From: Actinomycetota bacterium
GTDB lineage: Bacteria > Actinomycetota > Actinomycetes > Streptosporangiales > Streptosporangiaceae
Length of the DNA: 64,000 bases
Direction of reading: 5' to 3'
NCBI GenBank assembly: GCA_003164955.1
Contig: PLRW01000247.1
Location: 81,403-145,402 of the forward strand
In this document: positions 11,894 through 64,000 of the stretch, one piece after another
Numbering within the stretch: position 1 is the stretch's first letter
How the letters are laid out: every line of letters starts with the position of its first letter
Notes under the pieces: model-generated
Seen by the model: the letters and a program-made list of their open reading frames with translations, nothing else
Told to the model about the DNA's origin: nothing
Databases searched by the model: none
Made by a program: the position numbers and the translations under genes

Positions 11894-11896
11894 GCG

Positions 11897-15551: not shown

Positions 15552-15648
15552 GAACGTCGCGTCCCCGCCCGCGTGTGGAGAGCCGGCCAGCCCGGCCGTG
15601 GCCCTGCGATGATACGCGGGGCCACTCCCGCCGTCCCGCCGCGGGCCG

Positions 15649-16197: not shown

Positions 16198-16287
16198 GAT
16201 CGTTTCCCCTTTTTTCTTCTGGCTGGCCGCCCAATGGGGTCCCGGCGCATTCGCCGGGACCCCACCGGGCCTCGTGAACTGGCTTGG

Positions 16288-48829: not shown

Positions 48830-49607
48830 GTGCCGTCCCTTCGCCGTCGTCCGTGGCGCTGCCGGTGCGGGGAGACCGGCGTCGCAGGCGGACCGCTTCG
48901 CCGTTCTCCGCCAGCCGGCTCCGCGGGAGGGTTTTCCAGCCGGTGATCATCGAGGAGATCTCGCCGGATCGTTCCTCCCTATCGAACATCCAGGCCGAGT
49001 AGACGTGATGGATAACGAAGGCGATGGTCAGCCACATGACGATGTCGTGCAGGAGCCTTACCTCGGGGATCGGGAGCACCGTATAAACCCAGCCCGTCGC
49101 GGCCCACATCACGCCGTGGGTATTGGCCAGGGCTTCCAGCGCGAACCCGGTGAGAGCCTGCAGGGCGAACATCATGAAGAGCACGACGTAGGTCGCTCCG
49201 GCCAGGGGGTTGTGGCCGACCGCCGGGGGGCCTTCCAGCCGGCGGAACAGGTAGTACTCGAGGGTCGGCCGGATCTGCCGCCGCCGTTCCCGGCTGATGG
49301 GCAGGAGCTCGTCCCAGCGGGCCCACCGGTTCCCGGCGAAGGCCCAGTAAACCCGGGCGACGAGGACGGCCGCGAAAATCCAGCCGGTCGTGATGTGGAT
49401 GGTGCGGACGACCCCCATCGTGAACCCCGACGCGCTGGATGACCCGAACAGTGGATCAGCGATGTAGAAGCCGGTGACCGCCAGCACGATGATGCTGGCC
49501 ACCAGCATCCAGTGCAGGATGCGAACGGGAAGGTCCCATACCTTGACCCGGGCGATGTCACTGCCGTCGCCGGCCGTCACCGGGTGCTTCTCCTCGATGG
49601 CGGTCAC
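48816..49607 (-). CDS. Ni/Fe-hydrogenase b-type cytochrome subunit
   Basis: Start set at GTG 49607 (GTGA overlap with the large-subunit stop). VWDLPVRILHW..., four TM helices, conserved His residues. Unusually long Arg-rich C-terminal tail. Confidence 0.8.
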   Translation of the reverse strand: MTAIEEKHPVTAGDGSDIARVKVWDLPVRILHWMLVASIIVLAVTGFYIADPLFGSSSASGFTMGVVRTIHITTGWIFAAVLVARVYWAFAGNRWARWDELLPISRERRRQIRPTLEYYLFRRLEGPPAVGHNPLAGATYVVLFMMFALQALTGFALEALANTHGVMWAATGWVYTVLPIPEVRLLHDIVMWLTIAFVIHHVYSAWMFDREERSGEISSMITGWKTLPRSRLAENGEAVRLRRRSPRTGSATDDGEGTARAGR

Positions 49608-51334
49608 TGGACCTCGACCCTCAGCAGCTCGGTGCCGTCGGCGTCGAGAATGTGCGCGGCGCAGGCCATGCACGGGTCGAAGGAGTGGAGCGTGCGGAGA
49701 ATCTCCAGCGGCTGGGCCGGATTGTGGACCGGCGTTCCCACCAGCGCCGCCTCATAGGGGCCTCGCTGCCCGGAAGCGTCGCGGGGCCCCGCGTTCCAGG
49801 TCGTCGGGGCCACCACCTGGTAATTCGACACCTTGCCGTTGCTGATCTCCACCCAGTGCGACAGCGCCCCCCGTGGTCCCGCGTGCAGCCCGAAACCACG
49901 GGCGGCCGACGGCCAGGTGGCGGGATCCCACTTGCTGTCATCGAACGTCTGGGTGTCGCCCGACGCGATCCGCTCACGCAGCTGGGCCAGCACGGCCAGG
50001 GCTTGCTGAGCGACGACCACTGTCTCCACGCCACGGGCCAGCTGCCTGCCGAGCGTGGAGAACAGGGCGTCAGTCCCGAGATGGAGCTGGCTGAGAGTGC
50101 TGTCGATCAGGGTCTTCACCTGCGGACGCCCGTCCGCATAGCTGATGAGCATGCGAGCCAGCGGGCCTGTTTCCATCACCGCCCCGCCGTAGCGGGGAGA
50201 CTTCAGCCACGAGTAGCGCGAGCCGACGTCGAGGTGATCATACGGCGGGGCCGGCCCGGTATAGTTCGGATGCGTCTCGCCCTTATAGGGCTGGAGCGCC
50301 TGATCGTCCCCGCCGGAGTAGCTGTACCACGAGCGGGCCACCTCCTCGGTGAGCCGCATCGGGTCCAGCGACTCGACCCGGGTCAGGTCGCGATTGCGGA
50401 TCACCCCGGACGGGAAGAAGAGAGTTTCGTTGTTGAGCGCGCCGCCTCGCGGTGGATCACCGGTCGAGGAGAAGTCGCCGAAATCGAGGTAGTTGCCCGT
50501 CCCGCCGCCGATCTTGGCCCATTCCGGATAGTAGGAGGAAATGGCTACGAGGTCCGGCAGCAGTGCCTGGGTGACAAAGTCCAGGCCAGCCTGGAAGAGA
50601 TCCTGGAGCTGGGTGAGCCCTTCGTCGTTCAGGGCGTCGGCGCTGTTCAGGTCGATCGGCCGCGCGATCCCGCCGACCAGGTAAGTCTGGGGGTGCGGGT
50701 TCTTCCCGCCCAGGTAGGCCTGGACACGGATGAAATTCCGCTGGAACTGCAGGGCGTCCAGGTAGTGACTGACGGCCAGCAGGTCGACCTCGGGCGGGAG
50801 TTTGTAGGCGGGATGTCCCCAGTACCCGTTGGCGAAGGGGCCCAGGTTCCCGCCCTTGACGAAGGCCTGGAGCTTGCCCTGAACCCCCCGGAAATAGCTG
50901 GCCCCGGCGACCGGGTAATCCGAGATCGATGCCTGAATCGCGGCGGTCTTTACCGGGTCGGCGCGGAGCGCGGCGAGCACATCTACCCAGTCGAATGCCT
51001 GCAGTTGGTAAAAGTGGATCGTGTGGTCGTGGATGGTCTGACTGAGCGCGATCAGGTCGCGGATCAGCGACGCCGCGAGCGGCGGTGTGATCCCGAGTGC
51101 ATCCTCCACGGCCCGTACCGATGCCAGGGCGTGCACCGTGGTGCATACACCGCAGACTCGCTGGGCGAACAGCCATGCCTCGCGCGGGTCCCGCCCGAGG
51201 ATCACGTTCTCGATCCCCCGCCACATGGTGCCCGACGACCACGCATCGGTCACCCGGCCGCCCTCAACCTGCGCCTCCACCCGCAGGTGGCCCTCAATTC
51301 GCGTGACAGGATCCACGACAATCCGCTGGCTCAC
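49604..51334 (-). CDS. [NiFe] hydrogenase large subunit (group 1 / uptake type)
   Basis: 576 aa. DPVTRIEGH, QRVCGVCTTVH (N-terminal CxxC), C-terminal DPCMACAAH followed by a 15-aa cleavable extension. Confidence 0.95.
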   Translation of the reverse strand: MSQRIVVDPVTRIEGHLRVEAQVEGGRVTDAWSSGTMWRGIENVILGRDPREAWLFAQRVCGVCTTVHALASVRAVEDALGITPPLAASLIRDLIALSQTIHDHTIHFYQLQAFDWVDVLAALRADPVKTAAIQASISDYPVAGASYFRGVQGKLQAFVKGGNLGPFANGYWGHPAYKLPPEVDLLAVSHYLDALQFQRNFIRVQAYLGGKNPHPQTYLVGGIARPIDLNSADALNDEGLTQLQDLFQAGLDFVTQALLPDLVAISSYYPEWAKIGGGTGNYLDFGDFSSTGDPPRGGALNNETLFFPSGVIRNRDLTRVESLDPMRLTEEVARSWYSYSGGDDQALQPYKGETHPNYTGPAPPYDHLDVGSRYSWLKSPRYGGAVMETGPLARMLISYADGRPQVKTLIDSTLSQLHLGTDALFSTLGRQLARGVETVVVAQQALAVLAQLRERIASGDTQTFDDSKWDPATWPSAARGFGLHAGPRGALSHWVEISNGKVSNYQVVAPTTWNAGPRDASGQRGPYEAALVGTPVHNPAQPLEILRTLHSFDPCMACAAHILDADGTELLRVEVQ

Positions 51335-52491
51335 GTCCCCGCCTCACCGTCTGGCTGGTCGATCGTGCCGCCGGCCGGGGGATCGTCGATCGTGCCGTCG
51401 GCCGGGGTATCGCCGTTATCCGGCGGGGCCTGCCCGGCGGCCCGGCCGGCCAGGCGGTGCTGCACCGCCTTACCCACGCCGTGGACAGCGAAGAGGGCCG
51501 CCGTCCCGGCCACCACGGTGAGCCCGATGTCGTTAGCCGTGGCCTCGACCCCGAAACCGTGCACGTCCGTGAGCGTCGAATAGAACGGCGTCATGGTGTC
51601 CCAGAAGTCCGGCTCCGCACAGCCGACACAGCCATGGCCCGCCTGAACCGGCCAGCTCGTCCCGGAGTTCCATCGCGTCGTCGGGCAGCTGTTGAACGTG
51701 TCCGGCCCCTTGCAGCCCAGCCGGTACAGGCACCAGCCATTAACGTGCCCCTCGTCACCGAACGCGAGCGCGAACTCGCCCGCGTCGTAGTGCGCCCGGC
51801 GTTCGCAGGCGTCGTGGATGCGGTTGCCGTAGGCGAACAGCGGCCGGCCGAGCCCGTCTGCGGCGGGCAGCGAACCGAAGCTCAGGAAGTGCACGATCGT
51901 CGCCGCGATGTTGTCCGCCACCGGCGGGCAGCCGGAGACGTTCACGAGCGGCTTCCCGGCGATGACATCGCCCACACTGGCCGCGGACGTGGGATTGGGC
52001 CGGGCCTTGGGAATCCCGCCGAAGGTAGCGCACGTTCCGACCGCGAGAATAGCCGCGCAGCCGCGCGCGGCCTCGGTCAGTATGTCGGTGGCGGACCGGC
52101 CGCCGATCGTGCAGGCGCCGACATCACTCGGGATCGATCCCTCGACCACGAGCAGATAGCCCGGTTCCGCCATGGCGGACGACAGTGCCGCCTCGGCCTG
52201 GGTCCCGGCCGCTGCCATCACCGTCTCCTGGTAGTCGAGCGAGACCAGGTCCAGAATCAGCCGGCCGACGTCCGGGTCGCTCGAGCGCAGGAACGACTCT
52301 GTGCAGCCGGTGCAGCCCTGGAACTCCAGCCACACCACCCGCGGCTTGCCCGGCGCGGCCAGCGCTCTGGCGACGGTCGGCGTGAGGGACGGCGGGAGCG
52401 CCAGAGCGGCGGTGAGGGTCCCGCAGTAGACCAGGAACCGTCGCCGGCTCACCTTGTGCGCGCGAAGCGTCCCGAGAAACTCCTCGGACAT
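51331..52491 (-). CDS. [NiFe] hydrogenase small subunit, Tat-exported, C-terminal membrane anchor
   Basis: Start at MSEEF (ATG 52491). Tat motif SRRRFLVY. GCTGCTES, GTCA.FGG, GCPP, and distal-cluster Cys/His motifs. TM segment IGLTVVAGTAALFAVHGVG. Confidence 0.9.
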   Translation of the reverse strand: MSEEFLGTLRAHKVSRRRFLVYCGTLTAALALPPSLTPTVARALAAPGKPRVVWLEFQGCTGCTESFLRSSDPDVGRLILDLVSLDYQETVMAAAGTQAEAALSSAMAEPGYLLVVEGSIPSDVGACTIGGRSATDILTEAARGCAAILAVGTCATFGGIPKARPNPTSAASVGDVIAGKPLVNVSGCPPVADNIAATIVHFLSFGSLPAADGLGRPLFAYGNRIHDACERRAHYDAGEFALAFGDEGHVNGWCLYRLGCKGPDTFNSCPTTRWNSGTSWPVQAGHGCVGCAEPDFWDTMTPFYSTLTDVHGFGVEATANDIGLTVVAGTAALFAVHGVGKAVQHRLAGRAAGQAPPDNGDTPADGTIDDPPAGGTIDQPDGEAGT

Positions 52492-52821
52492 GTCGATATC
52501 GCACGGCTCAGAATCAGTATTTGCCTGGCCCTCGTCCTGCGGGGCAGGTAATGCGCCCGGCTTCCGGACGAATGGGAACCCGAGTGATACGACTCGCTGC
52601 GCCATCGCGCTCTCCCGTCAGGGGACGTCCTTGAACTAGGCCCCCCACCAAGGTCCGGAGCAACAGATGCCGTCGCCACAAGCGTCAGCAGGACGCCAGA
52701 AACGGGACATTTTTACGTTACGGTCACGTTACGCCAGCCCGGATATTCACACCAGGCCTGCACGACGAGCTTCCCGGTGCATGCGCGTGAGCGGTGCCGA
52801 TGGCGGCCGGCCGGTAGCCGG

Positions 52822-55341
52822 TCAGTGCGCCGGCAGGTAGACGCTGAACGTGGTCCCCTGGCCGAGGGTGCTTTCCACCGTGACGTGACCGCCGTGCAGT
52901 TCGGTGATCGCCTTCACGATGGACAGGCCCAGGCCGGTCCCCGGGAGCCCCGCGGTCCGTGCGTTGGAGGCCCGGACGAAGCGCCCGAAGAGCTGGCCGA
53001 TCTCTTCGGGCGGGATGCCGATACCGTTGTCGGCTACGTCGATCCGCCAGCCGCCACCGTCGTTGCCGCCGTCCCAGATCGCATCGACCCGGACCAGGCC
53101 GTTGGACCCGGAGAACTTGACCGCATTGACGATCAGGTTGTCGATGACCTGAGCCAGCCGCGCGCGGTCGGCCTGGATCAGCGGTCCCTCATCGGCGGAG
53201 AAGTGGACGGTGACCCCGTGCTTCGTCGCCCGGGCCGAGGCGGCGCGAGCCGCCTCGCCTGCCACCTCGGGGACGGACACCGGCTCAAGCTCCAGCGGAA
53301 CGGCCCCCGACTCGAGCTTGCTCAGCAGCAGCAGATCGCCGACCAGACGGAGCAGCCGGTGCGCGTTCCGCTCGATGATGTCGAGGAACTGGGCGCCGTC
53401 GGCGGTGAGCGCCTGGGTTTCCGCCCGCATCAGCTCGCTGAAGGACACGATCGACGTGAGCGGTGTGCGCAGCTCGTGCGACACGGTAGCGATGAAGACG
53501 GTTTTAGCGTGGTCGAGCTCGCGCAGCTTCTCGTTCTGCAACTCCAGCTGCCGTCGGCCCATCTCCGCCGCGTGGCGCCCGACGAGCTCGGCCTCGAGCA
53601 ATCGCTCGCGCTGCTCCTCCAGCTGCTTGCGCTCCGTTATGTCCCCGACCATCCAGAGATCACCGCGGTAGCGGCCGCCGACCGCCACCGGCCAGTAGGT
53701 ACATTCCAGGGTGCGGCCGTCCGCGCATGCGATCTGCTCACCCGCCACCGGCTGACGTGCGCTGAAAGCCTTGGCCGTGCGGCGGACGTATTCGTCCGGA
53801 TCGGCGAACATCTGCTTGATCCGGAGCACCAGGTCTCTGGCGGCCGTCCCCACGAGATGGTCCGGTGATTCCATCCCGTGCATGGTGGCGAAACTCTGGT
53901 TGACGTGGGTGATCCGGCCCTCCTCGTTGGTGAAGAGCACGCCGGGGATCGCGTTCGTGATCAGGCAGTTGAGGCGCTCGGTCTGGTCGGCTAGACCAAG
54001 GCGGGCGGCCTGTTCGGCCGCCAGCAGCCGTTCCCGCTCGGCTGCCGTCCGCTTGACATCGGAGATGTCGGTGAGGGTCACCAGGAATCCCAGCGGGGCC
54101 GCGTCGGCGGCACCAAGCGCCATCGCGGAGGCCTGGACCCAGATGTCGCCGCCGTCCGCCGAGCGCAGCCGGAATTCGGTTCGCGTCTCCGACTTCCCGG
54201 CGCGCATATCACGCGCCACCCGTGCACGGTCATCGGGAAGGACGAGATCCAGCCAGTCCATCACAGGAGCATCGTCCGGCCGGACCCCGGTGATCGCGCA
54301 CCAGCGATCGTTGACGAAGACGGTCCGTCCGTCGGCACCGGCTTGCATGATACCGACCGGCGCCAGCTGGGCGAGCAGCCGGAAGCGTTCTTTGGTCTCG
54401 GCGACGGCCGCCTCGGAATGCTCGAGCTCGGCGAGGTCCCGGAAGAACCCGCAGAAATAAGTCTCGCCGTCCCGGGTCAGTTCCGCGGCCATCAGCTCGA
54501 CGCTGCGTTCCGTGCCGTCGGCGCACAGCAGCGGCACCCGCACCCGGCCGGCGTACTTACCCCGGTCACCCGTCGCCAGGTGCTGTTCGGTGAACGCCAC
54601 GAACGCGGCACGTTCCCGTTCGGGGATCAGGAGACCCGTCATCTCCTCGCCCAGCACGTCGTCGCGCCGGTAGCCGGACAGTTCCTCGGCCGCGGGGTTG
54701 AACGCCACGAGCCGCCGGCCGGAGTCCATGGCGATGATCGCATCGGGCGAGCCGGCGATCAGCGTCTGGGCCAGCGCCTGCTGATCGGCGAGGCCGGCTG
54801 TATCGTTGGCGTGGCGGATCTGGGCCGCGACGGCGGCGGCCACGGCGTTCAGCACGGCCCGGGTTTCGGTGTCCCACTCCGGAGTGTCCCCGACGAGGGC
54901 GATCGCGCACAGGCACTGACCGCCGACCGGCGCGGAATATGCCACCAGGGCGCTCGGGCCGGGGCCCCCCGGTCCCAGCGGCGCCTGGACGGAGCCGTCG
55001 CCCGCCACGCCGTCAGGGGATGTGCTCAGCGCGCCGACCCGGCTGAGCAGCGTCCGGTCACCGGCGGCATCGGCCGGATGGGCCGCCAGCACCACCGGTG
55101 GCGGCCCGGTCCCCGGCTGAAAGGCCAGTGCGCAGCGGCCGGAAAAGGCCGTGACGAGCCGGGCGAGAACCACCGGCAGGGCGTCGAGCGAGTCGTTCTG
55201 CAGGACCTGCTCAATCGCGAACGCCACGACAGCGACCGGTGCGTCCGGCCGGCTCTGATGGTTCACGGCCAGATCCGGGGCCGGCCTGGATCGAGATGCC
55301 CCCATGGCGTCGCGCTGTCCCCCACCCCTGTTACTGCCCAT
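52822..55341 (-). CDS. multi-sensor (GAF + 3 PAS) histidine kinase
   Basis: 839 aa. Three PAS cores (DAIIAMD..., PVGIMQA..., IPGVLFTN...). HisKA VSHELRTPLTSI. HATPase GTGLGLSIVK. No response regulator adjacent. Confidence 0.85.
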   Translation of the reverse strand: MGSNRGGGQRDAMGASRSRPAPDLAVNHQSRPDAPVAVVAFAIEQVLQNDSLDALPVVLARLVTAFSGRCALAFQPGTGPPPVVLAAHPADAAGDRTLLSRVGALSTSPDGVAGDGSVQAPLGPGGPGPSALVAYSAPVGGQCLCAIALVGDTPEWDTETRAVLNAVAAAVAAQIRHANDTAGLADQQALAQTLIAGSPDAIIAMDSGRRLVAFNPAAEELSGYRRDDVLGEEMTGLLIPERERAAFVAFTEQHLATGDRGKYAGRVRVPLLCADGTERSVELMAAELTRDGETYFCGFFRDLAELEHSEAAVAETKERFRLLAQLAPVGIMQAGADGRTVFVNDRWCAITGVRPDDAPVMDWLDLVLPDDRARVARDMRAGKSETRTEFRLRSADGGDIWVQASAMALGAADAAPLGFLVTLTDISDVKRTAAERERLLAAEQAARLGLADQTERLNCLITNAIPGVLFTNEEGRITHVNQSFATMHGMESPDHLVGTAARDLVLRIKQMFADPDEYVRRTAKAFSARQPVAGEQIACADGRTLECTYWPVAVGGRYRGDLWMVGDITERKQLEEQRERLLEAELVGRHAAEMGRRQLELQNEKLRELDHAKTVFIATVSHELRTPLTSIVSFSELMRAETQALTADGAQFLDIIERNAHRLLRLVGDLLLLSKLESGAVPLELEPVSVPEVAGEAARAASARATKHGVTVHFSADEGPLIQADRARLAQVIDNLIVNAVKFSGSNGLVRVDAIWDGGNDGGGWRIDVADNGIGIPPEEIGQLFGRFVRASNARTAGLPGTGLGLSIVKAITELHGGHVTVESTLGQGTTFSVYLPAH

Positions 55342-55483
55342 TCCGCGGCATCGTCGCGCCGACCGGACGCGGCTCCCCCCGCCGCACTAAACCGTTACTA
55401 CCCGATTACGGATCGTTAAACCAGCCCAGCCGTCGATGAGCGGCCGCCGACGGGCCCGCACGGGTGCGTTGGCCCTGGCCGGA

Positions 55484-55750
55484 GTTCAGATATACGTCAA
55501 CTGACGGATGTTTTGCTCTGCAACTTGCATGACACTTTCTTTGCAAGTGACGGCGACAGCGCAGGGAGGCCCGGACGTTGGACGCTGGCCGGCTGCGGGA
55601 AAGCTTCGCCCAGGTCGCGGCCCAGGGTGACGAGCTACCCCTGTTCTTCTACTCCGACCTGTTCCTCAAGCATCCGGAGGTGCGGGGCATGTTCCCCGTC
55701 TCGGGGGCGGCGCAGCGCAGCCACCTCGTCCACGCGCTGGCGAAGATCGT
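55484..55750 (+). repeat. copy A of an inverted duplication: flavohaemoglobin promoter region + first ~58 codons (globin fragment from TTG 55578)
   Basis: Aligns by eye to the reverse complement of 63601-63261. One 63-nt stretch has a single mismatch, and about 74 nt are present only in copy B. Encodes LDAGRLRESFAQVAAQGDELPLFFYSDLFLKHPEVRGMFPVSGAAQRSHLVHALAKIV. Confidence 0.85.
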
Positions 55751-57071
55751 GGAAGCTGGGCCATGTCCGCTCGCCCAGCGGCGGGTGGCGGTAGAAGTTC
55801 GGCGTTTGGTCGAAATCCTCGTAGGTGCGGTGGAAGACCGGGGTCGCGGAGGATGCGGCAGGCGGCACGATCCAGGTCCAGTCGGCCGGGCACGCCCGGC
55901 CGTGCCGTTCCTCCCGCTCTATGTGCTGGAGAAAGCGGACCGACTCGGTGTGATGGTCGGTGATCGTGACGCCGGCGGTGCTGAACGAATCAAGGACCGC
56001 AACGTTGAGCTCGGTCATTGCCCTGTCTTTCCACAGGTTCCGGTCGCTGGTCACCGAAAGGCCCATATGCGCGGCGATCACCGCCAGCTGGTCGTAACGG
56101 CCACTGTCGCCGAGGTCACGCGATCCGATCTCGGTGCCCATGTACCAGCCGTTGAACGGCGCGGCGGGGTAACAGATGCCGCCGATCTCCAGGTACATGT
56201 CGCTGATGACCGGCACGGCGTACCATCGCAGCCCGAGGTTGGCGAACCAGCGAAACTCCGGATGCTCGATCGGTATCTCGAGTACCGCGTCGGCGGGTAT
56301 CTCGTGCACCGTGACGGGCGCGCCCGCCTCCTGCACGAGCAACGGAAGTACGTCGAACCGGCCGGCTGGCCGCCTGCCCGGCCAGCCGAGATCGTAGGCA
56401 AGCCGGGTGAGGCCGGTATTCGCCGGGTCCCCGATGACGGCGCCGTAGCCTGTCTCGTAGCCCGCGTACCGAACGAGCTGGGAGTTGAGGATCCGCGGTC
56501 CTGGCCGATCCGGCGCGTCCGGGGCGAACACGGTGATCACCGGCCGGATCCGGCCACCGTTAGTCGCCTCGCGCAGGTGCGTGACCGACTCGGCGGCGAT
56601 GTCCGGTGCCGCGGTGACCTCGCGGCAGTCTCGCACCCGGAGGCTCCGCCAGTAGAGCCGCCCGATACATCGCGAACTGTTCCGCCAGGCAACACGCGCG
56701 CCAAATTCCAGCTCAGCCGGGGTGTGCCAGTACGTGCCCGACGTCTCGATCCGGCGGCGAACGTGCCAGAGCCGCCGGTCGGGGGCCCCGAGGCGGTTCT
56801 CGCGGTAGAACAGCGTGATGAACTGCTCGGCGCTGGCCAGCAGGCTGTCGAGGGCGGACGGGCCATAGCCTGCCGAGGACCACTCAGCGGGCATCGGGGC
56901 CACGTCAGCGGCGAAGCCGGTCCCAGCTTCGCCCCCAGCCACCGGGCAGGCACTCGGGGGCGGGAACGCCGGCGACCGATCGCCCGGCTCCGGACCGAGG
57001 GCGCGGTCCCGCGGCCGGCCCCGGCCAGGAATACGCCAGCGCGAATCCGAAGGAACTTGGTTCAGGTCCAC
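55635..57071 (-). CDS. nos: bacterial nitric-oxide synthase oxygenase domain protein, with ~65-aa N-terminal and chimeric C-terminal extensions
   Basis: 478 aa. Haem-thiolate motif WRNSSRCIGRLYW, plus ...RPVITVF..., FNGWYMGTEIGSRD, ITDHHT, CPADWTWIVPP.S.S.TPVFH. GTG start has GGGAGG 5 nt upstream. Confidence 0.9.
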   Translation of the reverse strand: MDLNQVPSDSRWRIPGRGRPRDRALGPEPGDRSPAFPPPSACPVAGGEAGTGFAADVAPMPAEWSSAGYGPSALDSLLASAEQFITLFYRENRLGAPDRRLWHVRRRIETSGTYWHTPAELEFGARVAWRNSSRCIGRLYWRSLRVRDCREVTAAPDIAAESVTHLREATNGGRIRPVITVFAPDAPDRPGPRILNSQLVRYAGYETGYGAVIGDPANTGLTRLAYDLGWPGRRPAGRFDVLPLLVQEAGAPVTVHEIPADAVLEIPIEHPEFRWFANLGLRWYAVPVISDMYLEIGGICYPAAPFNGWYMGTEIGSRDLGDSGRYDQLAVIAAHMGLSVTSDRNLWKDRAMTELNVAVLDSFSTAGVTITDHHTESVRFLQHIEREERHGRACPADWTWIVPPAASSATPVFHRTYEDFDQTPNFYRHPPLGERTWPSFHDLRQRVDEVAALRRPRDGEHAPHLRMLEEQVGVEEQG

Positions 57072-57212
57072 GGAGACCTCCCCGGTAGCCCCGAGGTGCT
57101 GCGCCCCTCAATAGCGGGCAGCCAGCGACTTGCGGCTACCTCCGATGGCAGCACGATCGTGTACTACCAGCCTGGGTGGTCATCCTGCCCTTGCCTTGAC
57201 GTCTACCTTGCA

Positions 57213-57323
57213 CCCCAGGTCACGGCACCCCAGGTCGCGGCGCAAGCGGGCACGGCAGGTCGCGGCGCAAGCGGGGGCCAGCGGCGGCCGGCAGATCGCA
57301 GCGCAAGCGGGGGCCAGCGGCGG
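57213..57323. repeat. nested direct repeats between the SARP stop and the NOS start
   Basis: CCCCAGGTCRCGGC x2 (57213, 57228). CAGGTCGCGGCGCAAGCGGG x2 (57231, 57256). GCGCAAGCGGGGGCCAGCGGCGG x2 (57265, 57301). Confidence 0.85.
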
Positions 57324-57332
57324 TACGCCGGA

Positions 57333-60300
57333 CTAGGAAACGCGGATGGCGAAGGCGGGGTCGATGGTCTCCATGCGTATCCGCACTGACGCTGCCTCTG
57401 GCAGGCCGAGCCGTTCGAAGATGTCCAGCGCCTGCCTGAAGACAATCCGCGCCGTATCGGACCCCTGGGTGCTGAGTGTGGATTCCGCGATTCCCTCGAG
57501 AATCTTGCCTTCTTCGTACGGGTCGCCGATCTCCCTGGCCAGCCGGAGGGCGGCGTTGCAATGATCAAGTGCCTCGCCGAACCGGCCCGATCCGCGATAT
57601 ATGTCGGCAATCAGGCGCAGCGCGATCAGCTGCTGGGACAGGTTGCCGACATCCTCGGCGATCTCCCGCGCCTTCTGGTGATGAATAAGCGCCTCGTCGT
57701 CGCGTGCCGCGCTCTGGTAGATGGCACCGATGTCATTCAGCACCTCGGCTTCATCCGGAAGGTCTCCGATGTCACGGTATATCGCAAGCGCCTGCCGGAA
57801 GGCGGCAAGCGCTTCCTCGCAGCTGCCCTTGTAACGGTAGACGCTGCCGATGTTCTGGTGCAGGATCGCCTCGTTCTGCGCTCCGCCTATCTCGCGGAAT
57901 ATCTCCAGGGACTTCTGGTAGGCGTCGAGCGCGTCCCGATGGTAACCGTTGTACAGATGCACCCGGCCCAGGTTGTTGAGCACCTTCGCCTCCCCGCGCC
58001 GGTCGCCGGTCTCACGGTAGAGCGAAAGCGCGTCATGCATGTGGGTATTCGCCTCGGGGTAACGCCCCAGCTGCCAGCAGGCGACCCCGGAATGGCTCAG
58101 GGTGTCGGCCACTCCGCGCTGGTCCGCGGCGGCACCGTAAAGAATCTGTGCCTCGGAGAAATAGGCGAGTGCCTCACGGGCACGGGCTGTGCGCAGGTGA
58201 GCCATGCCTATCTGGTCGAGAGACCGGGCCTCGCCTCTCCGGTCGGACCGCGACCGGTAGATCGCTGCGGCCTCCTCAGCCAGGGAAATCGCCGGCTCGT
58301 GCTGCCCGGTCTGCTGCTGCACCGCGCTGAGCGCCAGCGCCGCCCGCGCGATCCTGGCCGGATCAGCGATATCGCGGCTGGCCTGCAGGGCAACGGTATG
58401 AGCTGTGGTCGCCTCATCCCAGTACGCGCTGATCTCCATGAAGTCAGCCAGCAGGTAGATGAGGTCGGCGCACTTCTGCTTCCATTCGTGCCGGCCCGCA
58501 TAGCGCGCGGCCTGCAGGATGTTGCGCCACTCCGATTCCAGCCAGCCGGCTGCGTCTTCCTGCGTACCGAGGGCCGGGCTGCCGGCCGGCATCTCGCCAG
58601 CCTCCTCGGCCACCCGGAGCGGGAACGGGTGCAGGACCCGGTCGGCCAGGCCGGCTGTGTGCAGGTAGTAATCAAGGAGCCTGCTCACGGCCTGCCTCTG
58701 CTCCGCCTCGGAATCATCACGCGCGGCGCGAGTGGCCGCATAGCCGCGGATCAGGTCGTGGAAGCGGAACTGATCGCCGGGGGCCGGCGCGAGCAGGTGA
58801 TGATCGAGCAGGGCAACGAGCGCCTTCTCCGCCTCGGCGAGGGTACAGCCGCCCAGAGCGGCCGCGGTGGGCAGGCTGAGGTAAGCGCACGGACTGACGC
58901 CCAGCCGCCGGAAGAACCTCTGATGGTCGGGCTCCAGCGCCCGGTAGGACAGATCGAAGGCGGCTATCACCTCCGGGTCCGCCGCGCCGGTGTCAGCCGG
59001 CCACGCCCGGGACTGCGACAGTTCGTCGATCAGGGCACCGAGACCGGGCGGGCCGTCCCGCGCGACCCGGCGGGCGGTGAGCTGGATCGCGAGCGGCAGC
59101 CGCCCGCACAGTCTTACGGCCGCCGCGATCTGATCCGCGTCAGCGGCCCGGCTCTCGCCGGCCAGCCGCCGGAACAACGTGATGGCCTCGCCGACGGACA
59201 GCACGTCGAGGGTCAGCGAACGGGCGCTGCCGAAGTCGGGAAGCCTCCGCCGGGTGGTGATCAAGATCAGGCACTGGCCCGCCACCGGCAGGAGCGGGCC
59301 GATCTGGTCATGCCCGGCCGCGTCGTCCAGGATCACGACGGCGCGGCGACGGCTCAGGTGAGCCCGCCACAGCGCGGTGCGCTCGCCGATGGTTTCCGGT
59401 ATCTGCGCGGCCGGCACGGACAGCATCTGGAGCAGGCGGTGCAGTGCCTCGGCCGGGTCGAGCGAAGGGCTCCCGGGATCATGGGAATGAAGGTTGAGGT
59501 AGAGCATCCCGTCCGGGTACTGCCCCGAGACCAGGCGAGCCGCGCGGACGGCCAGCGTGGTCTTTCCCACGCCCGGCATGCCCTCGATAATGGCGATCCC
59601 GGGGATGCTGCCGTGCTCCCCGGTGAGCAGCCCGAGTTCTTCGTCGCGGCCCACGAACTCCGCCGTCTCGGGCGGAAGGGTGTCCGGCGATGCCGCCCGG
59701 GCCGAGCGCCGGCCGGAGGACCTGACGGCGAGCCCCGGGTCGTGGTCGAGGATGCGCTGATGCAGACCGGACAGCATCGCCCCCGGTTCTGTGCCCTGCT
59801 CCTCGATCAGGCGGCTGCGGGTTTGCCGGTAAAGGCTCAGTGCGTCGGCCGGCCTACCGCTCCGGAAAAGAGCGGTCATCTGGTGGGCGGCGAGCGTTTC
59901 ATCCAATGGGTACTGAACCAGCAGATAGTTGAGTTCACCCACCAGATCGGCGTGCCGGCCAAGCTCCAGCTCGCACGCGACTCGCTCGAGAATGGCCGCC
60001 CGGCGCTCCTCCTCGAGAGCGTCCCGCATTCGCGCTACCCAGTCGCCGCGGATCCCGCCCAGCGCCTGGCCCCGCCAGAGCCCGTCCGCCTCGCGCAGCA
60101 GCCCGGCTGCCTGTTCGTAGTCGCCGCTTGCGGCGACGGCATCCGCCTGCCGGCGCAGCCGGCGGAACTGATGCACGTCGACCGCCTCGGGATCGACTTC
60201 CAGCATGTAGCCCTGCGCACGCCCCACCAGATGGACGCTGTCTGCCACGGCCTGCCGGAGTGACGCCCGGAGCCTGGCCACGTAAACCGTAAGGCTATCC

Positions 60301-60476
60301 CTCGCCTTTGGCGGGGGCCGCGTATCCCACAGCCGGTCGATGAGAGTCTCGGCCGGGACTATCGCGTGCGGCGTCAGCAGGAGCATGGCCAGGATGGAGC
60401 GCGCCCTGGCGCGCCCAAGATCCTGCCGCCGTCCAGCCGACCAGAGCTCAATCGGTCCGAGGACCCGGAATTCCAT
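57333..60476 (-). CDS. AfsR/SARP family regulator (OmpR-type wHTH + BTAD + NB-ARC + TPR)
   Basis: Start at MEFRVLGPIELW (ATG 60476). BTAD (YPLDETLAAHQMTALFRSGRPADAL). P-loop GMPGVGKTTLA. Long C-terminal TPR array. Confidence 0.9.
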   Translation of the reverse strand: MEFRVLGPIELWSAGRRQDLGRARARSILAMLLLTPHAIVPAETLIDRLWDTRPPPKARDSLTVYVARLRASLRQAVADSVHLVGRAQGYMLEVDPEAVDVHQFRRLRRQADAVAASGDYEQAAGLLREADGLWRGQALGGIRGDWVARMRDALEEERRAAILERVACELELGRHADLVGELNYLLVQYPLDETLAAHQMTALFRSGRPADALSLYRQTRSRLIEEQGTEPGAMLSGLHQRILDHDPGLAVRSSGRRSARAASPDTLPPETAEFVGRDEELGLLTGEHGSIPGIAIIEGMPGVGKTTLAVRAARLVSGQYPDGMLYLNLHSHDPGSPSLDPAEALHRLLQMLSVPAAQIPETIGERTALWRAHLSRRRAVVILDDAAGHDQIGPLLPVAGQCLILITTRRRLPDFGSARSLTLDVLSVGEAITLFRRLAGESRAADADQIAAAVRLCGRLPLAIQLTARRVARDGPPGLGALIDELSQSRAWPADTGAADPEVIAAFDLSYRALEPDHQRFFRRLGVSPCAYLSLPTAAALGGCTLAEAEKALVALLDHHLLAPAPGDQFRFHDLIRGYAATRAARDDSEAEQRQAVSRLLDYYLHTAGLADRVLHPFPLRVAEEAGEMPAGSPALGTQEDAAGWLESEWRNILQAARYAGRHEWKQKCADLIYLLADFMEISAYWDEATTAHTVALQASRDIADPARIARAALALSAVQQQTGQHEPAISLAEEAAAIYRSRSDRRGEARSLDQIGMAHLRTARAREALAYFSEAQILYGAAADQRGVADTLSHSGVACWQLGRYPEANTHMHDALSLYRETGDRRGEAKVLNNLGRVHLYNGYHRDALDAYQKSLEIFREIGGAQNEAILHQNIGSVYRYKGSCEEALAAFRQALAIYRDIGDLPDEAEVLNDIGAIYQSAARDDEALIHHQKAREIAEDVGNLSQQLIALRLIADIYRGSGRFGEALDHCNAALRLAREIGDPYEEGKILEGIAESTLSTQGSDTARIVFRQALDIFERLGLPEAASVRIRMETIDPAFAIRVS

Positions 60477-60689
60477 GATCGCCTTGCATCTACTACCGCC
60501 GTCGATAGATTGCAGCTGATATCCGAACGGGATTGCGTCGACGCATCCCGCTGCGCTAATACCCAGTGTCGGCATTTCTCACCCGCATCCAGAGAGAATT
60601 AGCGGAGCAACAAAGTTACCACGCCTCTGCCGTTGGCTTGCGACGCAACTTTCACGGCAATCCCCACGCCCATCGGCAGGCGGTCCGCC

Positions 60690-60761
60690 TGCCCGCGTGT
60701 TTGCCCGCGTGTTTGCCTGCGCGCCTGCCCAGAAACTTTGTCCGCGCGTCTGCCCAGAAAC
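60690..60761. promoter_or_regulatory. six direct TGCC-headed repeats with 12-13 nt periodicity in the SARP / small-ORF divergent region
   Basis: TGCCCGCGTGTT TGCCCGCGTGTT TGCCTGCGCGCC TGCCCAGAAACT TTGTCCGCGCGTC TGCCCAGAAAC. Confidence 0.45.
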
Positions 60762-61009
60762 CTATCTCCGGACGAGAGAAAGCTAGCTGCCCGAACTTAT
60801 TTCTGCCGGGATCACCTTAGCGATCAATTTAGTACGGCGTGAGCACGTACGGCCATGTCCGGACTCCGGGACGTCACCAAGGCCGCCGGGCAAAAAATTG
60901 CCACTCGAATTAATCCGAATGGCGCATCGCAGCGCGAATAATGCGATAGCTTTTCTTTTGAGACATTCTGCGCGCAGACCTCGTTATCAACCGATAAGGG
61001 ATCACCCCA

Positions 61010-61279
61010 ATGAAAACTCATCAGTGGATACTGCCTGTCGTCATGCAGACGGGAATCGGCCCGGCCGAGAGCCCAGCGAGAACAGTGGGAACCAATCCGC
61101 GGGGCCGCAGGGCGAGCGGGATTCTCATTCTGGCTCTCGCGCTCGGCGGCTTCGGCGCCGGGGCCGCGGCAACATCAGGCCAGGTGAGTGCCCATCACAC
61201 GGCGGGCAATGCTCGCCCCGGAGCCAGCGCTCACCTGACGAGCGCCGGTCACGTTATCAGCAATCCCTGGATGCTCTGA
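61010..61279 (+). CDS. candidate small secreted peptide (very uncertain)
   Basis: 89-aa ORF in lower-GC DNA. GRRASGILILALALGGFGAGAAATSGQVSA looks like a signal peptide and leaves a 28-aa His-rich tail, HHTAGNARPGASAHLTSAGHVISNPWML. Weak RBS (AAGGGA). Confidence 0.3.
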   Translation: MKTHQWILPVVMQTGIGPAESPARTVGTNPRGRRASGILILALALGGFGAGAAATSGQVSAHHTAGNARPGASAHLTSAGHVISNPWML

Positions 61280-61538
61280 CTCAATATCACGTTCCGGAGC
61301 TATACGTTTTCGATCTCGGTATGCAATATGGCCATACCTGGCTGCTCTTATGCCTTTCAAGGGGCTAGCGGCCGACTCGAAAGCGCGGGCAGGAGCGGCA
61401 TCAATTGCGCCGCGAACCGGTCCCTGGGCCCGGTAATGCGCAGCGGCATCATGCGCGTTACCGGGCCCACCTGCGAGCAATAGATAGCGCAGGACAGATA
61501 GCCAGGACGGATAACGCAGGACGGATAACGCAGAAGAA

Positions 61539-61580
61539 CGGCAGCCGACCGGGCGTTCCCGGTCGGCTGCCGTCTTTATC
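61539..61580. terminator. bidirectional intrinsic terminator-like hairpin
   Basis: Perfect 16-bp stem ACGGCAGCCGACCGGG / CCCGGTCGGCTGCCGT with a 4-nt loop, followed by CTTTAT on the plus strand and TTCTTCTG on the minus strand. Lies 7 nt downstream of the DivIVA-domain gene stop. Confidence 0.6.
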
Positions 61581-61586
61581 GTGCCG

Positions 61587-62285
61587 CTACCCGCGTCCTC
61601 TCAACGGTGCAGATGCGTCGCCATTAATCGCCCGCGGCCCGCCAGGTGGCACAGCTTGCGCTGCGTGCGCTGCTTGCGCTGCTTCCTGTAGTGAGGCTGC
61701 TTCCTTACGCTCCCACTCCTCGATACCGCGCAGGATTCCCTCGGTGTAAGCGCGCAAGTGCGCCCGGTAGACGTCGCTGTAGGTGCGCAGATAGGCCAGT
61801 TCCGCCTGCGCGGCCTGCTGCTTTTCGTCGGACTGTGGCGCCGCCGCCACGTTCAGCGCCGAAACCGCTGCCTCGCGGGCCTTGGTGTGCGCGTCTTCCA
61901 GCAGCATGTCCGAGTACTGCTGGGCCTCCTGCATGATCTCATCGCGGCGCCGCTTGGCCTCCAGGGTGAGCCGGCTGCTGTAATCCTGCGCATCCGCCAC
62001 GTACTGGTCGGCGGTGACCTGCGCGGTTGACAGTATCCGCACCGCGTGTACGTGCGCGTCTGCCTCACCGAACAGCACCGCCTGTGGCTCACCATCGCTC
62101 TCTCCGGCGATGATCCGGCGGCGGAGTCGCTGAACTTCCTGCCACAGCGACGTCCGTTCGTTCATCAGATGCACGAACTCGGCGTGCACCGCGCTCAGGA
62201 ACCCCCGGACGGCCTCTTCTTCGTAGCCACGCCGCCCCAGCCGCGACGTGGGAAACGTCACGGTCTGCAACTCTTCGGGGGTCAT
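61587..62285 (-). CDS. DivIVA domain-containing coiled-coil protein
   Basis: Start at MTPEELQTVTFPTSRLGRRGYEEEAVRGFL (ATG 62285), the canonical DivIVA N-terminal motif. 29 nt downstream of the flavohaemoglobin stop. Confidence 0.75.
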   Translation of the reverse strand: MTPEELQTVTFPTSRLGRRGYEEEAVRGFLSAVHAEFVHLMNERTSLWQEVQRLRRRIIAGESDGEPQAVLFGEADAHVHAVRILSTAQVTADQYVADAQDYSSRLTLEAKRRRDEIMQEAQQYSDMLLEDAHTKAREAAVSALNVAAAPQSDEKQQAAQAELAYLRTYSDVYRAHLRAYTEGILRGIEEWERKEAASLQEAAQAAHAAQAVPPGGPRAINGDASAPLRGRG

Positions 62286-62314
62286 CCTGCTCTTGTCGTC
62301 GAACCATGCTGTGC

Positions 62315-63433
62315 TCAAGGCTCGCTCCAGCCGAAATCCTCGATATGTATCTGATCCTGCGGCACGCCGGCTGAGGCCAGCCGAGCGGCAGCGTCCCGGA
62401 CCATCTTGGTCGGGCCGGCCAGGTAGGCGTCGTGCCCTGACCAATCGCCGTGCCGGGCCACCACATCCGGGAGACTGCCGGTCTCGCCGGCGAACTTGGG
62501 ATCGGCCGACACGGCTGGCGTAATGGTCAGCCACGAGTACTGGGCGCCCATCTTCTCCAGGCTTTCCAGGTCATAGAGTCCGTCTGCGGTCCGCGCGCCA
62601 AAGAACAGGTGTACCTTCGGCGGCCGCGGCAGCGAGGCCACCTGGTCGAGAATGGCTTTCAGGGGGGCCAGTCCGGTACTTCCCGCCACGAGCAAGAGGT
62701 CCCGGCCGGAGACGGGCTGACTCAGCGTAAGGACCCCGACGGGAGGTCCCAGCCTGAGCTCGGTGCCAGCGACCGTGCTGCTGGTAAGCGCCATGCTTAC
62801 CGCACCGCCATCGATCAGCCGGATATGGAACTCCAGCAGCCCGTCCTGACGCGGCGCGTTCGCTATCGAGTAGTAGCGCCACAGCCTTGGGCGGCTGGAG
62901 GATTCGATCGCCACGGACTGCCCCGGCAGATAGTCCATTCGCGGCTCCGGCTGAACAAACAGCACGGAAACGTCGAAAGACCTCGCCTCGTGAGCCACGA
63001 CCGTACCCCGCCACCAGGGCGGCCGCAGTCGCTCGTCCGCGCTTGCCGCCGCGGTCATGACGGAGCCGATGAGCGCGTAGGCCGCCTTCCAGTCGGCGGC
63101 CAGCTCCGGCGTCCAGGCCGGTCCGGAGAAATGTTCCAAGGTCGCCAGCAGACTGGCGCCTACGGCGTCATAATGCCCGGCGACAGCGCCGAACTTCCGG
63201 TGATCACGGCCCAGTCCCTCAAGGAACACGGTCAGATCATCAACGCTGTCTACCTGCGAAACGATCTTCACCAGCGCGTCGACGAGGTGGCTGCGCTGTG
63301 CCGCCATCGAGACGGGGAACATGCCCCGCACCTCTGGATGCTTGAGGAACAGGTCGGAGTAGAAGAACAGTGGTAGCTCGTCACCGTGTACCGCGACATG
63401 GGCGAAGCTTTCCCGTAGCCGGGCAACGTCCAA
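62315..63433 (-). CDS. flavohaemoglobin-like protein (globin + FNR-type FAD/NAD(P) reductase; candidate NO dioxygenase)
   Basis: Globin features FFYSDLF (Tyr B10), AAQRSHL (Gln E7), GRDHRKFGV (proximal His). Reductase features RYYSIAN (RxYS) and VAGSTGLAP. Start uncertain: TTG 63433 corresponds to the start in copy A, and the track ORF extends to 63577. Confidence 0.85.
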   Translation of the reverse strand: MDVARLRESFAHVAVHGDELPLFFYSDLFLKHPEVRGMFPVSMAAQRSHLVDALVKIVSQVDSVDDLTVFLEGLGRDHRKFGAVAGHYDAVGASLLATLEHFSGPAWTPELAADWKAAYALIGSVMTAAASADERLRPPWWRGTVVAHEARSFDVSVLFVQPEPRMDYLPGQSVAIESSSRPRLWRYYSIANAPRQDGLLEFHIRLIDGGAVSMALTSSTVAGTELRLGPPVGVLTLSQPVSGRDLLLVAGSTGLAPLKAILDQVASLPRPPKVHLFFGARTADGLYDLESLEKMGAQYSWLTITPAVSADPKFAGETGSLPDVVARHGDWSGHDAYLAGPTKMVRDAAARLASAGVPQDQIHIEDFGWSEP

Positions 63434-63601
63434 CGGGTCCCGCCTCTCTGTGCCATCGCCACCAGCTGGCGGATCCGGCGACGCTGGCCCGCGGCCTGAG
63501 GATCCGCTCACCGGTCGCATGCCGGATCGCACCATCACTTGCAGGGCAAGTCTCATGCAAGTTGCAGAGCAAGACATCCGTCAGCTGACGGATATCTGAA
63601 C
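63261..63601 (-). repeat. copy B (functional locus) of the inverted duplication
   Basis: Reverse complement aligns with 55484-55750. The palindrome ACTTGCA-N12-TGCAAGT is conserved in both copies (55523-55548 and 63537-63562). Confidence 0.85.
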
Positions 63602-63831
63602 CCGGGCCACGGCCGGCGCGGCTTCGCCGGGCTGTCGATGGCGCACCGGCTGTGGTGATCCAGTCAGCGCCGCCAAGGCGCCCGGCGCTTTCGCCGTCAC
63701 ATCATCAACCGCCGCCAATGGTCACGTGGAGGTGATCGCCGCGGCTCACATAGCAGCAGATTTTTGGCAGCCCGCACCCGGCTGGTGGCGGCCGGAGTGG
63801 TACCAGAAAGCGGTCCAGGTGATACCAGAAA

Positions 63832-63862
63832 GCGGAGAGCCCCGCTGAACGGGGCTCTCCGC
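63832..63862. terminator. intrinsic terminator-like hairpin downstream of the DUF397 gene
   Basis: GCGGAGAGCCCCG-CTGAA-CGGGGCTCTCCGC, a 13-bp perfect stem. The minus strand continues CTTTCTGG. Confidence 0.55.
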
Positions 63863-63905
63863 CTCTTCTGATCGACAGCTACTACGAGCAGGATGCTACA
63901 GCGCT

Positions 63906-64000
63906 TTATTTCCTGCCGAAGCTATCGAATTCTCCCTTTTGTGCGCCTCCGAGAAATGCATGCCATTCGTCCGGTGTAAATCGGAGAACTGGCCCTCCGG
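63906..64000 (-). CDS. DUF397 (BldB-like) domain protein, C-terminal fragment at the window edge
   Basis: My reverse translation gives ...GGPVLRFTPDEWHAFLGGAQKGEFDSFGRK-stop. W.AFL...K.GEFD is the typical DUF397 C-terminus. Confidence 0.6.
   Translation of the reverse strand, partial: GGPVLRFTPDEWHAFLGGAQKGEFDSFGRK

Follow-up and report, generated by a model that had tools for sequence, protein, structure and literature searches.

What is a bacterial nitric oxide (NO) synthase for when it lies beside a large transcriptional regulator and a globin? The question is raised by a stretch of 64,000 nucleotides (nt) from an actinomycete of the Streptosporangiaceae (assembly GCA_003164955.1, contig PLRW01000247.1, positions 81,403 to 145,402 of the forward strand), hereafter the window. 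Between positions 55484 and 63601 it carries, in a region of 64-70% GC and all on the minus strand, the genes for an NO synthase (NOS), a SARP-family regulator, a DivIVA-domain protein and a flavohaemoglobin-like protein in which a globin is joined to an FNR-type reductase (globin-FNR). To our knowledge, the regulation of bacterial NOS enzymes and the fate of their NO are poorly understood beyond a few Firmicutes and the thaxtomin and rufomycin pathways. The reading that we prefer, and whose chances we judge to be evenly balanced, is that the module is a self-contained, regulator-equipped endogenous NO system, in which the SARP would activate nos, the NOS would make NO and the globin would convert this NO to nitrate. 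Gene content, domains, residues, synteny and motifs are what we observe; every step of binding and catalysis is what we infer from them.

The NOS gene (55635-57071, minus strand) encodes 478 amino acids (aa) with an oxygenase domain only. PF02898 is its sole Pfam match (3.7e-145, aa 75-429, model positions 3-357 of 362) and no reductase domain was found by the Pfam scan, in line with the initial annotation, which had described a stand-alone NOS. Its best structural relative is the Geobacillus NOS (PDB 2flq, E 4.7e-113 for the core), to which both the Cys135 thiolate motif WRNSSRCIGR and the arginine-binding Glu314 in GWYMGTEIG align intact. The protein fits the oxygenase-only bacterial NOS family, and arginine-dependent NO formation is predicted for it. 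The start codon is a GTG at 57071, which follows a conserved ribosome-binding site, GGGAGG, and shares its alignment column with the start codons of relatives (ATG in L015 and L018). An N-terminal extension of about 75 aa, of low complexity and with a single Cys, precedes the core, homology to solved NOSs beginning at aa ~69-76; by Pfam and by alignment to solved NOSs, the mammalian N-terminal Zn/pterin hook is absent.

The other end of the module is the globin-FNR gene (62315-63433, minus strand), whose 372-aa product combines the Pfam domains Globin, FAD_binding_6 and NAD_binding_1 in one chain. It aligns over its full length with E. coli Hmp (1gvh, E 1.8e-20), and also with 1cqx and 3ozu. 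Translation would start at a TTG behind a GAGAGG ribosome-binding site, and the resulting length matches that of relatives; a 420-aa open reading frame (ORF) starting at ATG is too long by this comparison. The residues that had been named for a flavohaemoglobin could all be located: Tyr25 (B10), Gln46 (E7), the proximal His78 (F8), R186-Y-Y-S and G251-STGLAP, together with Tyr88 (G5). B10, E7, F8, G5 and GxGxxP are invariant in 19 members of the globin-FNR family, drawn from the three clades described below, and RxYS is kept in all of them except three clade-B members, which have RxFS.

Only 29 nt separate the globin stop codon from the start of the gene for the DivIVA-domain protein (61587-62285, minus strand, 232 aa). 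PF05103 covers residues 1-58, beginning at residue 1 from the ATG at 62285, and TIGR03544 also matches; the N-terminal DivIVA domain is followed by a coiled coil, which places the protein in the DivIVA family. Its score against the Wag31 equivalog model is 71.5 bits, compared with a cut-off of 260. A GC-rich hairpin with a 16-bp stem (61538-61573) follows the gene and is the likely terminator of a globin-DivIVA unit. Together with the 29-nt spacing, this hairpin makes the co-transcription of the two genes plausible, as had been suggested.

Is this neighbourhood kept in relatives? All four proteins were searched for in the 80 best NOS matches from species-representative genomes and in two metagenome loci, with all ORFs clustered. 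The nearest NOS relatives come exclusively from metagenome-assembled genomes (MAGs) of uncultured Streptosporangiaceae and from soil and peat metagenomes. In clade A (20 loci including the window, NOS 69-87% identical to that of the window) the SARP gene is adjacent to nos in 20 of 20 loci. A globin-FNR gene is present in 16 of these, always with a DivIVA gene (the DivIVA matches being weak in L003 and L004), and the globin(-DivIVA) genes lie either upstream on the same strand or, in L008, L010, L016 and L085, convergently behind NOS. Clade B (15 loci, NOS 61-73%) has no adjacent SARP gene, an unrelated SARP-like match of 36% identity lying about 8 kb off in L027. Here a paralogue of the globin-FNR protein, 40-44% identical, is encoded directly beside NOS in 13 of 15 loci, within a housekeeping region (SMC, Ffh, S16, signal peptidase). 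The two loci of clade C (L030 and L032, NOS 65%) again lack the SARP gene and carry a globin gene (product 59-61% identical) with a DivIVA gene 2 kb from NOS. Neither partner, SARP or globin, was found at the remaining 45 loci, nearly all from cultured genera (e.g., Streptomyces, Nonomuraea and Streptosporangium), where NOSs of lower identity to that of the window lie beside genes for enoyl-CoA hydratase, galactokinase or glycosidase. The initial annotation had drawn attention to a stand-alone NOS outside any biosynthetic cluster. Such a gene is indeed present, but this setting is the norm in these 45 loci and less unusual than was implied.

The neighbourhood comparison that the initial annotation had called for thus bears out the association of nos, SARP and globin genes. 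NOS and globin are neighbours in 31 of the 37 NOS loci of uncultured Streptosporangiaceae, in three types of arrangement and with two paralogous globin lineages, and judged by this recurrence the linkage of NOS and globin-FNR is beyond chance. In clade A, globin identities (71-93%) are roughly level with those of NOS (69-87%) or higher, but when clade A is compared with clade B the globin has diverged far more than NOS has. This excess divergence suggests two separate recruitments of paralogous globins to a place beside NOS, and separate recruitments suggest functional coupling more strongly than one inherited arrangement would. The linkage has also been approached from the globin. Globin-anchored look-ups found the SARP gene every time; as for NOS, one genome (L085, L086) has it intact, a second (L084) carries a frameshift in it and a third (L083) has it deleted. 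At L083:11119-11850, where NOS is gone, the DivIVA and SARP genes have become convergent neighbours, and the globin gene and a small ORF described below are kept; at L084:11871-13135 the frameshifted NOS is accompanied by globin, DivIVA and SARP genes. By these cases, the globin-SARP link can outlive NOS. As a separate observation, two MAGs each contain two NOS genes of different clades: in CAVRHH01 (L005, L032) each NOS has its own globin-DivIVA pair, and in CAVQEN01 (L028, L029) a globin is adjacent at L029 only.

What could govern nos? The large SARP gene on the same strand (57333-60476, 1047 aa, starting MEFRVLG at the ATG at 60476, or 57333-60575, 1080 aa, from an in-frame ATG at 60575) ends exactly 261 nt (57072-57332) before the NOS gene. 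The position, strand and length first given for it hold, as do the domains, which are Trans_reg_C (PF00486), BTAD (PF03704), NB-ARC (PF00931) with a Walker A motif GMPGVGKT, and TPR (PF13424). With 538 bits against the NCBIfam AfsR model NF053617 (cut-off 1430), the protein is, by this measure, a relative of AfsR and not an orthologue. When the SARP-NOS spacers of clade A are aligned, one strongly conserved block stands out, GTGCAAG-gtaa-GCGTCAAG-gcga-GGGCAAG. In the window it takes the form of three putative SARP boxes, GCAAG-n7-TCAAG-n6-GCAGG (57184-57211, minus strand), which read in the nos sense and whose heptamer is of the PimR/SanG/PolR type, CGGCAAG boxes having been footprinted for these three regulators (PMC3367932). 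Searched as GCAAG-n6/7-(G/T)CAAG-n6/7-GCAAG with at most one mismatch, the triple box is found at the nos promoter in 17 of the 19 other clade-A (SARP-linked) loci. It matches twice in the 64-kb window, where 0.03 matches are expected, and SARP-less loci have only 2 matches in 1.2 Mb. About 9 nt downstream of the boxes follows a CAnnCT hexamer (CAGGCT in the window) that resembles a -10 element, and then a hairpin in the 5' untranslated region (UTR) and the ribosome-binding site. The afs box of AfsR spans -19 to -40 and is paired with a weak -10 (PMC10936776), a geometry that the box-to-hexamer spacing at nos resembles. Sigma-70 consensus promoters were not found at the relevant sites of the module. 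The claim that the SARP governs nos therefore gains in silico support from the adjacency in 20 of 20 loci, from the AfsR-like spacing and, best of all, from the conserved candidate boxes, but its reach is limited to the one clade in which the SARP occurs.

A conventional explanation would be a biosynthetic cluster that the SARP controls and the NOS serves. Pfam scans of the 53 ORFs covering the window revealed no cytochrome P450, non-ribosomal peptide synthetase (NRPS) or polyketide synthase (PKS), in agreement with what had been noted. None is present either in the 3.4 kb beyond the window end, as read from the ~99%-identical metagenome contig L088, where a DUF397 gene and a WhiJ-like HTH_31-DUF5753 gene follow. 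With the called genes of relatives equally devoid of these enzymes, we rejected the cluster explanation. Nor was the SARP gene found in or beside a secondary-metabolite cluster, since the window, L088 and the flanks of relatives are all free of biosynthetic genes; targets at a distance are possible.

The two outer ends of the segment, 55484 and 63601, turned out to be the ends of an inverted repeat, a feature that the initial annotation did not mention. Its right arm corresponds to the 5' end of the globin gene together with the promoter region. The left arm, a truncated inverted copy of globin-FNR (55443-55750, plus strand), is paired with 63261-63642 by the inverted repeats I1 (175 nt, 92%) and I2 (111 nt, 79%) and contains the globin promoter element, the ribosome-binding site, the TTG start (55578) and the first ~58 codons. 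It adjoins and overlaps the 3' end of the NOS gene and is directed into it, and the C-terminal ~38 codons of NOS are antisense to this globin fragment. A remnant of the same kind is found in L001-L005 and L007. Its substitutions are spread over all codon positions and the fragments have derived changes in common, which indicates an old, decaying piece of a pseudogene. A recent duplication or an active inversion switch was rejected on these grounds, the fragments in seven genomes decaying with common derived substitutions. The identity of 94.5% between the window's own arms hints at later gene conversion. In L008, L010, L016 and L085 an intact convergent globin-DivIVA pair occupies the same place behind NOS, so the fragment is best read as the relic of such a copy.

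What the two arms share at their core is a cis element of ~58 nt. At the globin promoter (63536-63601, minus strand) it consists of GTTCAG, a perfect 18-bp palindrome (ATCCGTCAGCTGACGGAT, 63576-63593) and three phased CTTGC boxes, which on the plus strand read GCAAG-n6-GCAAG-n7-GCAAG (63546-63573). This exact triple repeat occurs once in 64 kb (0.00 expected) and is the second of the two window matches of the triple-box pattern. The copy behind nos (55484-55548, plus strand, ~58-65 nt) has GTTCAG, the palindrome ATACGTCAACTGACGGAT (55492-55509) and then degenerate phased CTTGC-type boxes. The palindrome has two copies in the window, both in the module, against 0.05 expected. The element core is also present 3' of NOS in L009, L011, L015 and L018, with ~85-96% identity over the 44-70 nt aligned as BLAST segments. 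The flanks there do not align, and the coding remnant has been lost (L009, L011, L018) or reduced to 85 nt (L015). That the core was kept while its surroundings decayed implies selection on the copy 3' of NOS. Relative to the reading direction of the globin, the three boxes of each copy are on the opposite strand. A gene that these boxes might drive away from the globin was sought and rejected, as the stretch up to the terminator of the upstream DUF397 gene holds neither a conserved ORF nor other conserved sequence. The palindrome as an operator private to the module was also rejected, since in a metagenome scan it heads many unrelated regulatory genes, among them small HTH_17/MerR-like genes, genes for membrane proteins and an anti-sigma-like ATPase gene. 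Copies outside the module have one CTTGC box, compared with three in the module. The globin-DivIVA operon therefore seems to stand behind a general type of promoter/operator to which SARP-like boxes have been added.

These pieces can be assembled into a mechanism. The AfsR-type SARP, a STAND ATPase in which the NB-ARC and TPR regions are presumed to sense a signal, would bind the three phased GCAAG-type boxes overlapping the -35 region of nos and so switch NOS on. The oxygenase-only NOS would take electrons from general cellular reductases and turn arginine into NO. The flavohaemoglobin-like protein, with a pocket of the NO-dioxygenase type and its own FAD/NAD(P)H reductase, would oxidise the NO to nitrate, capping NO toxicity and determining how large the NO pulse is and how long it lasts. 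Overall, arginine would become citrulline and nitrate. The globin-DivIVA operon would form a separate transcription unit, which the same type of box in its promoter element may place under the same regulator. NO dioxygenation is the likeliest role of the globin on present sequence data, and the conversion of arginine to nitrate as the purpose of the whole is something we infer.

A number of observations weigh against this model and must be set beside it. The globin-FNR protein reaches 121.6 bits with the NCBIfam Hmp equivalog NF009805, far below the cut-off of 432, and is therefore named flavohaemoglobin-like and not an Hmp orthologue; E135 of E. coli Hmp (the proximal Glu-H23) stands opposite an Ala, in a gapped and poorly aligned region. 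Its NO dioxygenase activity is accordingly not assured. The loss of NOS in L083 and its frameshift in L084, with the globin kept, mean that the globin is not strictly dependent on NOS, and L006 and L012 have SARP and NOS genes with no globin gene within 10 kb. The SARP is confined to one clade, and a second clade combines NOS and globin without it. SARPs are, moreover, typically cluster-situated antibiotic regulators (PMC10972967). At the globin promoter the SARP-like boxes lie on the opposite strand, which makes simple co-activation of nos and globin doubtful, and the palindromic core of the element is found upstream of unrelated regulatory genes in high-GC contigs. Finally, the relatives compared are MAGs or metagenome contigs throughout.

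How do other explanations fare with the same evidence? The globin-FNR protein could be the missing NOS reductase, passing electrons from NAD(P)H to FAD and then, through the globin haem or directly, to the NOS haem in a two-component enzyme. The NOS does lack a reductase domain, the adjacency of the two genes is conserved, and Agapie in 2009 reportedly described a self-sufficient Sorangium NOS driven by an FNR-type FAD/NAD module. Bacterial NOSs are nonetheless said to run on general, non-dedicated cellular reductases (Gusarov is credited with this, in 2008), and 45 of the 82 surveyed NOS loci have no such partner. The globin moreover keeps a complete O2/NO-reactive distal pocket of the NO-dioxygenase type, needless in a mere electron carrier, and lacks the 2Fe-2S or FMN one-electron shuttle of known NOS reductases, and each gene can occur without the other (NOS in L006 and L012, globin in L083). 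The electron-donor role that had been offered for the globin is therefore highly improbable. A better case can be made for NO as the wanted product, either as a developmental or metabolic signal or to supply nitration, nitrosation or N-N chemistry by enzymes encoded elsewhere, with the globin serving self-protection and nitrate as a by-product. Those actinomycete NOSs that have been characterised supply P450 nitration in the thaxtomin and rufomycin pathways. The globin stands behind a promoter/operator family common to other regulatory genes and persists without NOS in L083, as a general NO defence would, and SARPs normally govern specialised metabolism (PMC10972967). Set against this, none of the 20 clade-A and 15 clade-B loci has a conserved biosynthetic gene, be it for a P450, NRPS, PKS or another enzyme, within 10 kb of NOS, and clade B has NOS and globin alone within a housekeeping region. 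In mechanism this explanation overlaps with the arginine-to-nitrate system that we prefer and differs in purpose alone; we hold it to be a serious possibility but a rather unlikely one.

The genes may also be uncoupled, the globin-FNR and DivIVA proteins having a function unrelated to NO (for example, a disulfide or D-lactate oxidoreductase like the type II flavohaemoglobins, or redox sensing at the cell pole) and travelling with SARP and NOS by shared ancestry in one lineage. The globin-FNR protein is only a distant relative of Hmp, NOS is missing from L083, and a linkage seen within one MAG family is phylogenetically non-independent. Actinomycetes are also known to possess type II flavohaemoglobins, which are not NO dioxygenases; in these, Cys289 and Cys360 are fully conserved and the NADH-binding site is absent (PMC8883573). 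The window protein, by contrast, has no Cys at all and keeps a normal GxGxxP NAD(P)H site in GSTGLAP, so we rejected its assignment to the type II (M. tuberculosis Rv0385-like) group, Rv0385 being compared by its description. Tyr-B10 and Gln-E7 are invariant, the linkage survives rearrangement within clade A, and clade B, where SARP and DivIVA are missing and the genomic surroundings differ, repeats it with a paralogous globin. The absence of any coupling is thus improbable. A last alternative concerns the logic of control. Two features, the inversion of the boxes at the globin promoter and a conserved promoter copy that points antisense into nos, suggest that the SARP might toggle between making and destroying NO. 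Bound to the three boxes at the nos promoter, which have an activating geometry, it would turn nos on; bound to the inverted boxes downstream of the general (possibly sigB/F-like) promoter and palindromic operator of the globin, it would block the globin; and bound to the retained promoter copy behind nos, it would stop an antisense transcript that otherwise fires into nos. Such a bistable NO pulse generator is speculative as a whole, and we give it a small chance.

The part families of the arginine-to-nitrate module are all known, and it is their combination, the dedicated regulator and the cis elements that are new. Full-text searches of the literature turned up SyNOS, the type II flavohaemoglobins and the NO cycle of Streptomyces coelicolor, and no account of a NOS-flavohaemoglobin gene neighbourhood or of a SARP-linked NOS. 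The closest parallel is SyNOS of Synechococcus PCC 7335, which has a fused globin and converts arginine to nitrate (PMC6104048; structure in PMC12922734, PDB 9q05). NOS oxygenase and globin are combined in both, and the proposed net reaction, from arginine nitrogen to nitrate, is the same. SyNOS, however, is a single polypeptide of 1468 aa with a diflavin reductase and a C2 domain, whereas here the parts are encoded by distinct genes that belong to different transcription units, neither of those domains is present, the FNR-type reductase belongs to the globin and not to NOS, and a dedicated SARP and a DivIVA-domain partner are added. A special kinship with the SyNOS globin was rejected, the match being weak (E 1.8e-5, compared with 1.8e-20 for E. 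coli Hmp). In Streptomyces coelicolor, flavohaemoglobin and Nar take part in an NO cycle (PMC4766573).

Compared with the stand-alone NOSs of Bacillus, Geobacillus, Staphylococcus and Deinococcus and with TxtD of Streptomyces, the window NOS is likewise oxygenase-only with the conserved Cys thiolate and Glu. It differs in its N-terminal extension, in its C-terminal tail derived from antisense globin and in its neighbours, which are a transcription factor and a flavohaemoglobin and not a P450 (TxtE) or pdt. The globin shares the Globin-FAD-NAD architecture of type I Hmp/Fhb proteins and their Tyr-B10, Gln-E7, His-F8, Tyr-G5, RxYS and GxGxxP. Unlike them, it has 372 and not ~400 aa, falls below the equivalog cut-off, shows no evident Glu-H23, has no nsrR gene nearby, and is translationally close to the DivIVA-domain gene and linked in the genome to NOS. 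The SARP resembles the large regulators AfsR and PolY in its winged helix, BTAD, NB-ARC and TPR domains, and its candidate sites resemble those of PimR, SanG and PolR in being phased direct repeats of a (C/G)GGCAAG-like heptamer overlapping the -35 region. It departs from them in lying outside an antibiotic cluster, in its presumed targets (an NO synthase and an NO-consuming globin) and in a box spacing that alternates between 11 and 12 nt.

If these predictions hold, the SARP would be the first candidate for a dedicated transcription factor of a bacterial NOS, complete with a predicted operator, and an example of a SARP whose apparent regulon is gas metabolism and not an antibiotic cluster. 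The globin would be a dedicated NO-consuming partner beside NOS, realising the idea of a split SyNOS as two small soluble proteins. Many soil and peat metagenomes contain sequences of the carriers (over 120 close globin clusters, and MAGs with MFD and SPRUCE isolate-name prefixes), so the conversion of organic nitrogen to nitrate by uncultured Streptosporangiaceae, if true, would bear on soil nitrogen cycling. Under the toggle, an abundant lineage of peat and forest soils would turn arginine nitrogen into nitrate, a candidate route of heterotrophic nitrification in acid soils. Two JGI contigs, L088 (Ga0116134_1003168) and L148 (Ga0182014_10032454), have 99-100% protein identity to the globin-DivIVA(-SARP) segment of the window, which points to the same species in those samples.

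Further elements surround the SARP gene. The ~100 nt before MEFRVLG (60476-60575) are conserved at the nucleotide level across clade A, with homologous stretches in L001-L018, and contain GGGTATCAGC repeated on both sides of a small hairpin. The stretch is in frame with the upstream ATG and may encode an N-terminal extension of 33 aa or a leader peptide, or act as a structured leader RNA. Spacer conservation across clade A reveals a motif upstream of the gene (GTGAAAGTTGCGTCGCAAGCC, 60635-60666, minus strand), which in relatives takes the form GAAAT-GAAAG-GCAAG with an 11/12-nt phase. It is degenerate compared with the nos boxes and may be a SARP autoregulatory site. Divergent from the SARP gene is a small conserved ORF of 89 aa (MKTHQWILP..., 61010-61279, plus strand) with one hydrophobic helix and no Pfam family. 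It has tblastn matches in L001-L005, L007-L010 and L012, is called as a 94-aa gene in L001, L002 and L083, and is part of the module. Between it and the SARP gene, six GGGCA(A/G)(A/G) heptamers with 12- to 13-nt spacing occupy 60690-60770 of the minus strand; as they are specific to the window and absent from relatives, a conserved operator was rejected here. The same holds for the tandem duplications of 25-36-nt units just upstream of the nos boxes (57228-57323), which relatives have not kept. The nos 5' UTR (~57080-57165) has a conserved stem, GGTAGYAC...GTGCTACC, directly before the ribosome-binding site, with a minimal loop in L009, L015 and L017 and inserts of ~70 nt in the window, L001 and L003. 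This hairpin may stabilise the mRNA or control translation. Known RNA families were not found in 55000-64000.

The 20-mer ATCCGTCAGCTGACGGATGT, together with a downstream TGCAAyTTGCAg...TGCAAC block, defines a family of promoter/operator elements that has multiple copies in high-GC contigs of soil actinobacteria (metagenome loci L087-L166, e.g., L098:10769, L100, L104, L109 and L149). It heads small HTH_17/MerR-like (BldC-like) genes and an anti-sigma-like gene with HATPase_c_2. The membrane proteins that it also heads look SpoIIE/PP2C-like by eye, and no Pfam phosphatase domain was found in the part scanned. Many copies have GTTyrr 15-16 nt before GGATGT, a weak resemblance to sigB/F-type promoters.

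The same-strand genes directly downstream of NOS (48329-55341) encode a histidine kinase with multiple PAS domains (52822-55341) and, as a [NiFe] uptake-hydrogenase set, the small and large subunits, cytochrome b and the HycI protease. The copy of the globin element precedes the kinase start by ~140-200 nt, and its boxes read in the same direction as the kinase gene; neither kinase nor hydrogenase is conserved in relatives, and both were rejected as parts of the module. Farther away, at 7039-22209, is an exopolysaccharide-type cluster that resembles the fungal galactosaminogalactan set, with genes for a DUF3492-GT4 glycosyltransferase, sugar epimerases/dehydratases, a nucleotidyl transferase and GH114, and two Spherulin4-family genes. 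One of its genes (16288-22209, minus strand) encodes a secreted-looking protein of 1973 aa with an Agd3-type CBM87 and at least nine He_PIG Ig repeats, and is strongly skewed in strand composition (GC skew up to +0.14, AT skew -0.27). A MazF/PemK-type toxin gene (27845-28186) lies amid genes of acyl-CoA metabolism and one for a Baeyer-Villiger-type flavin monooxygenase.

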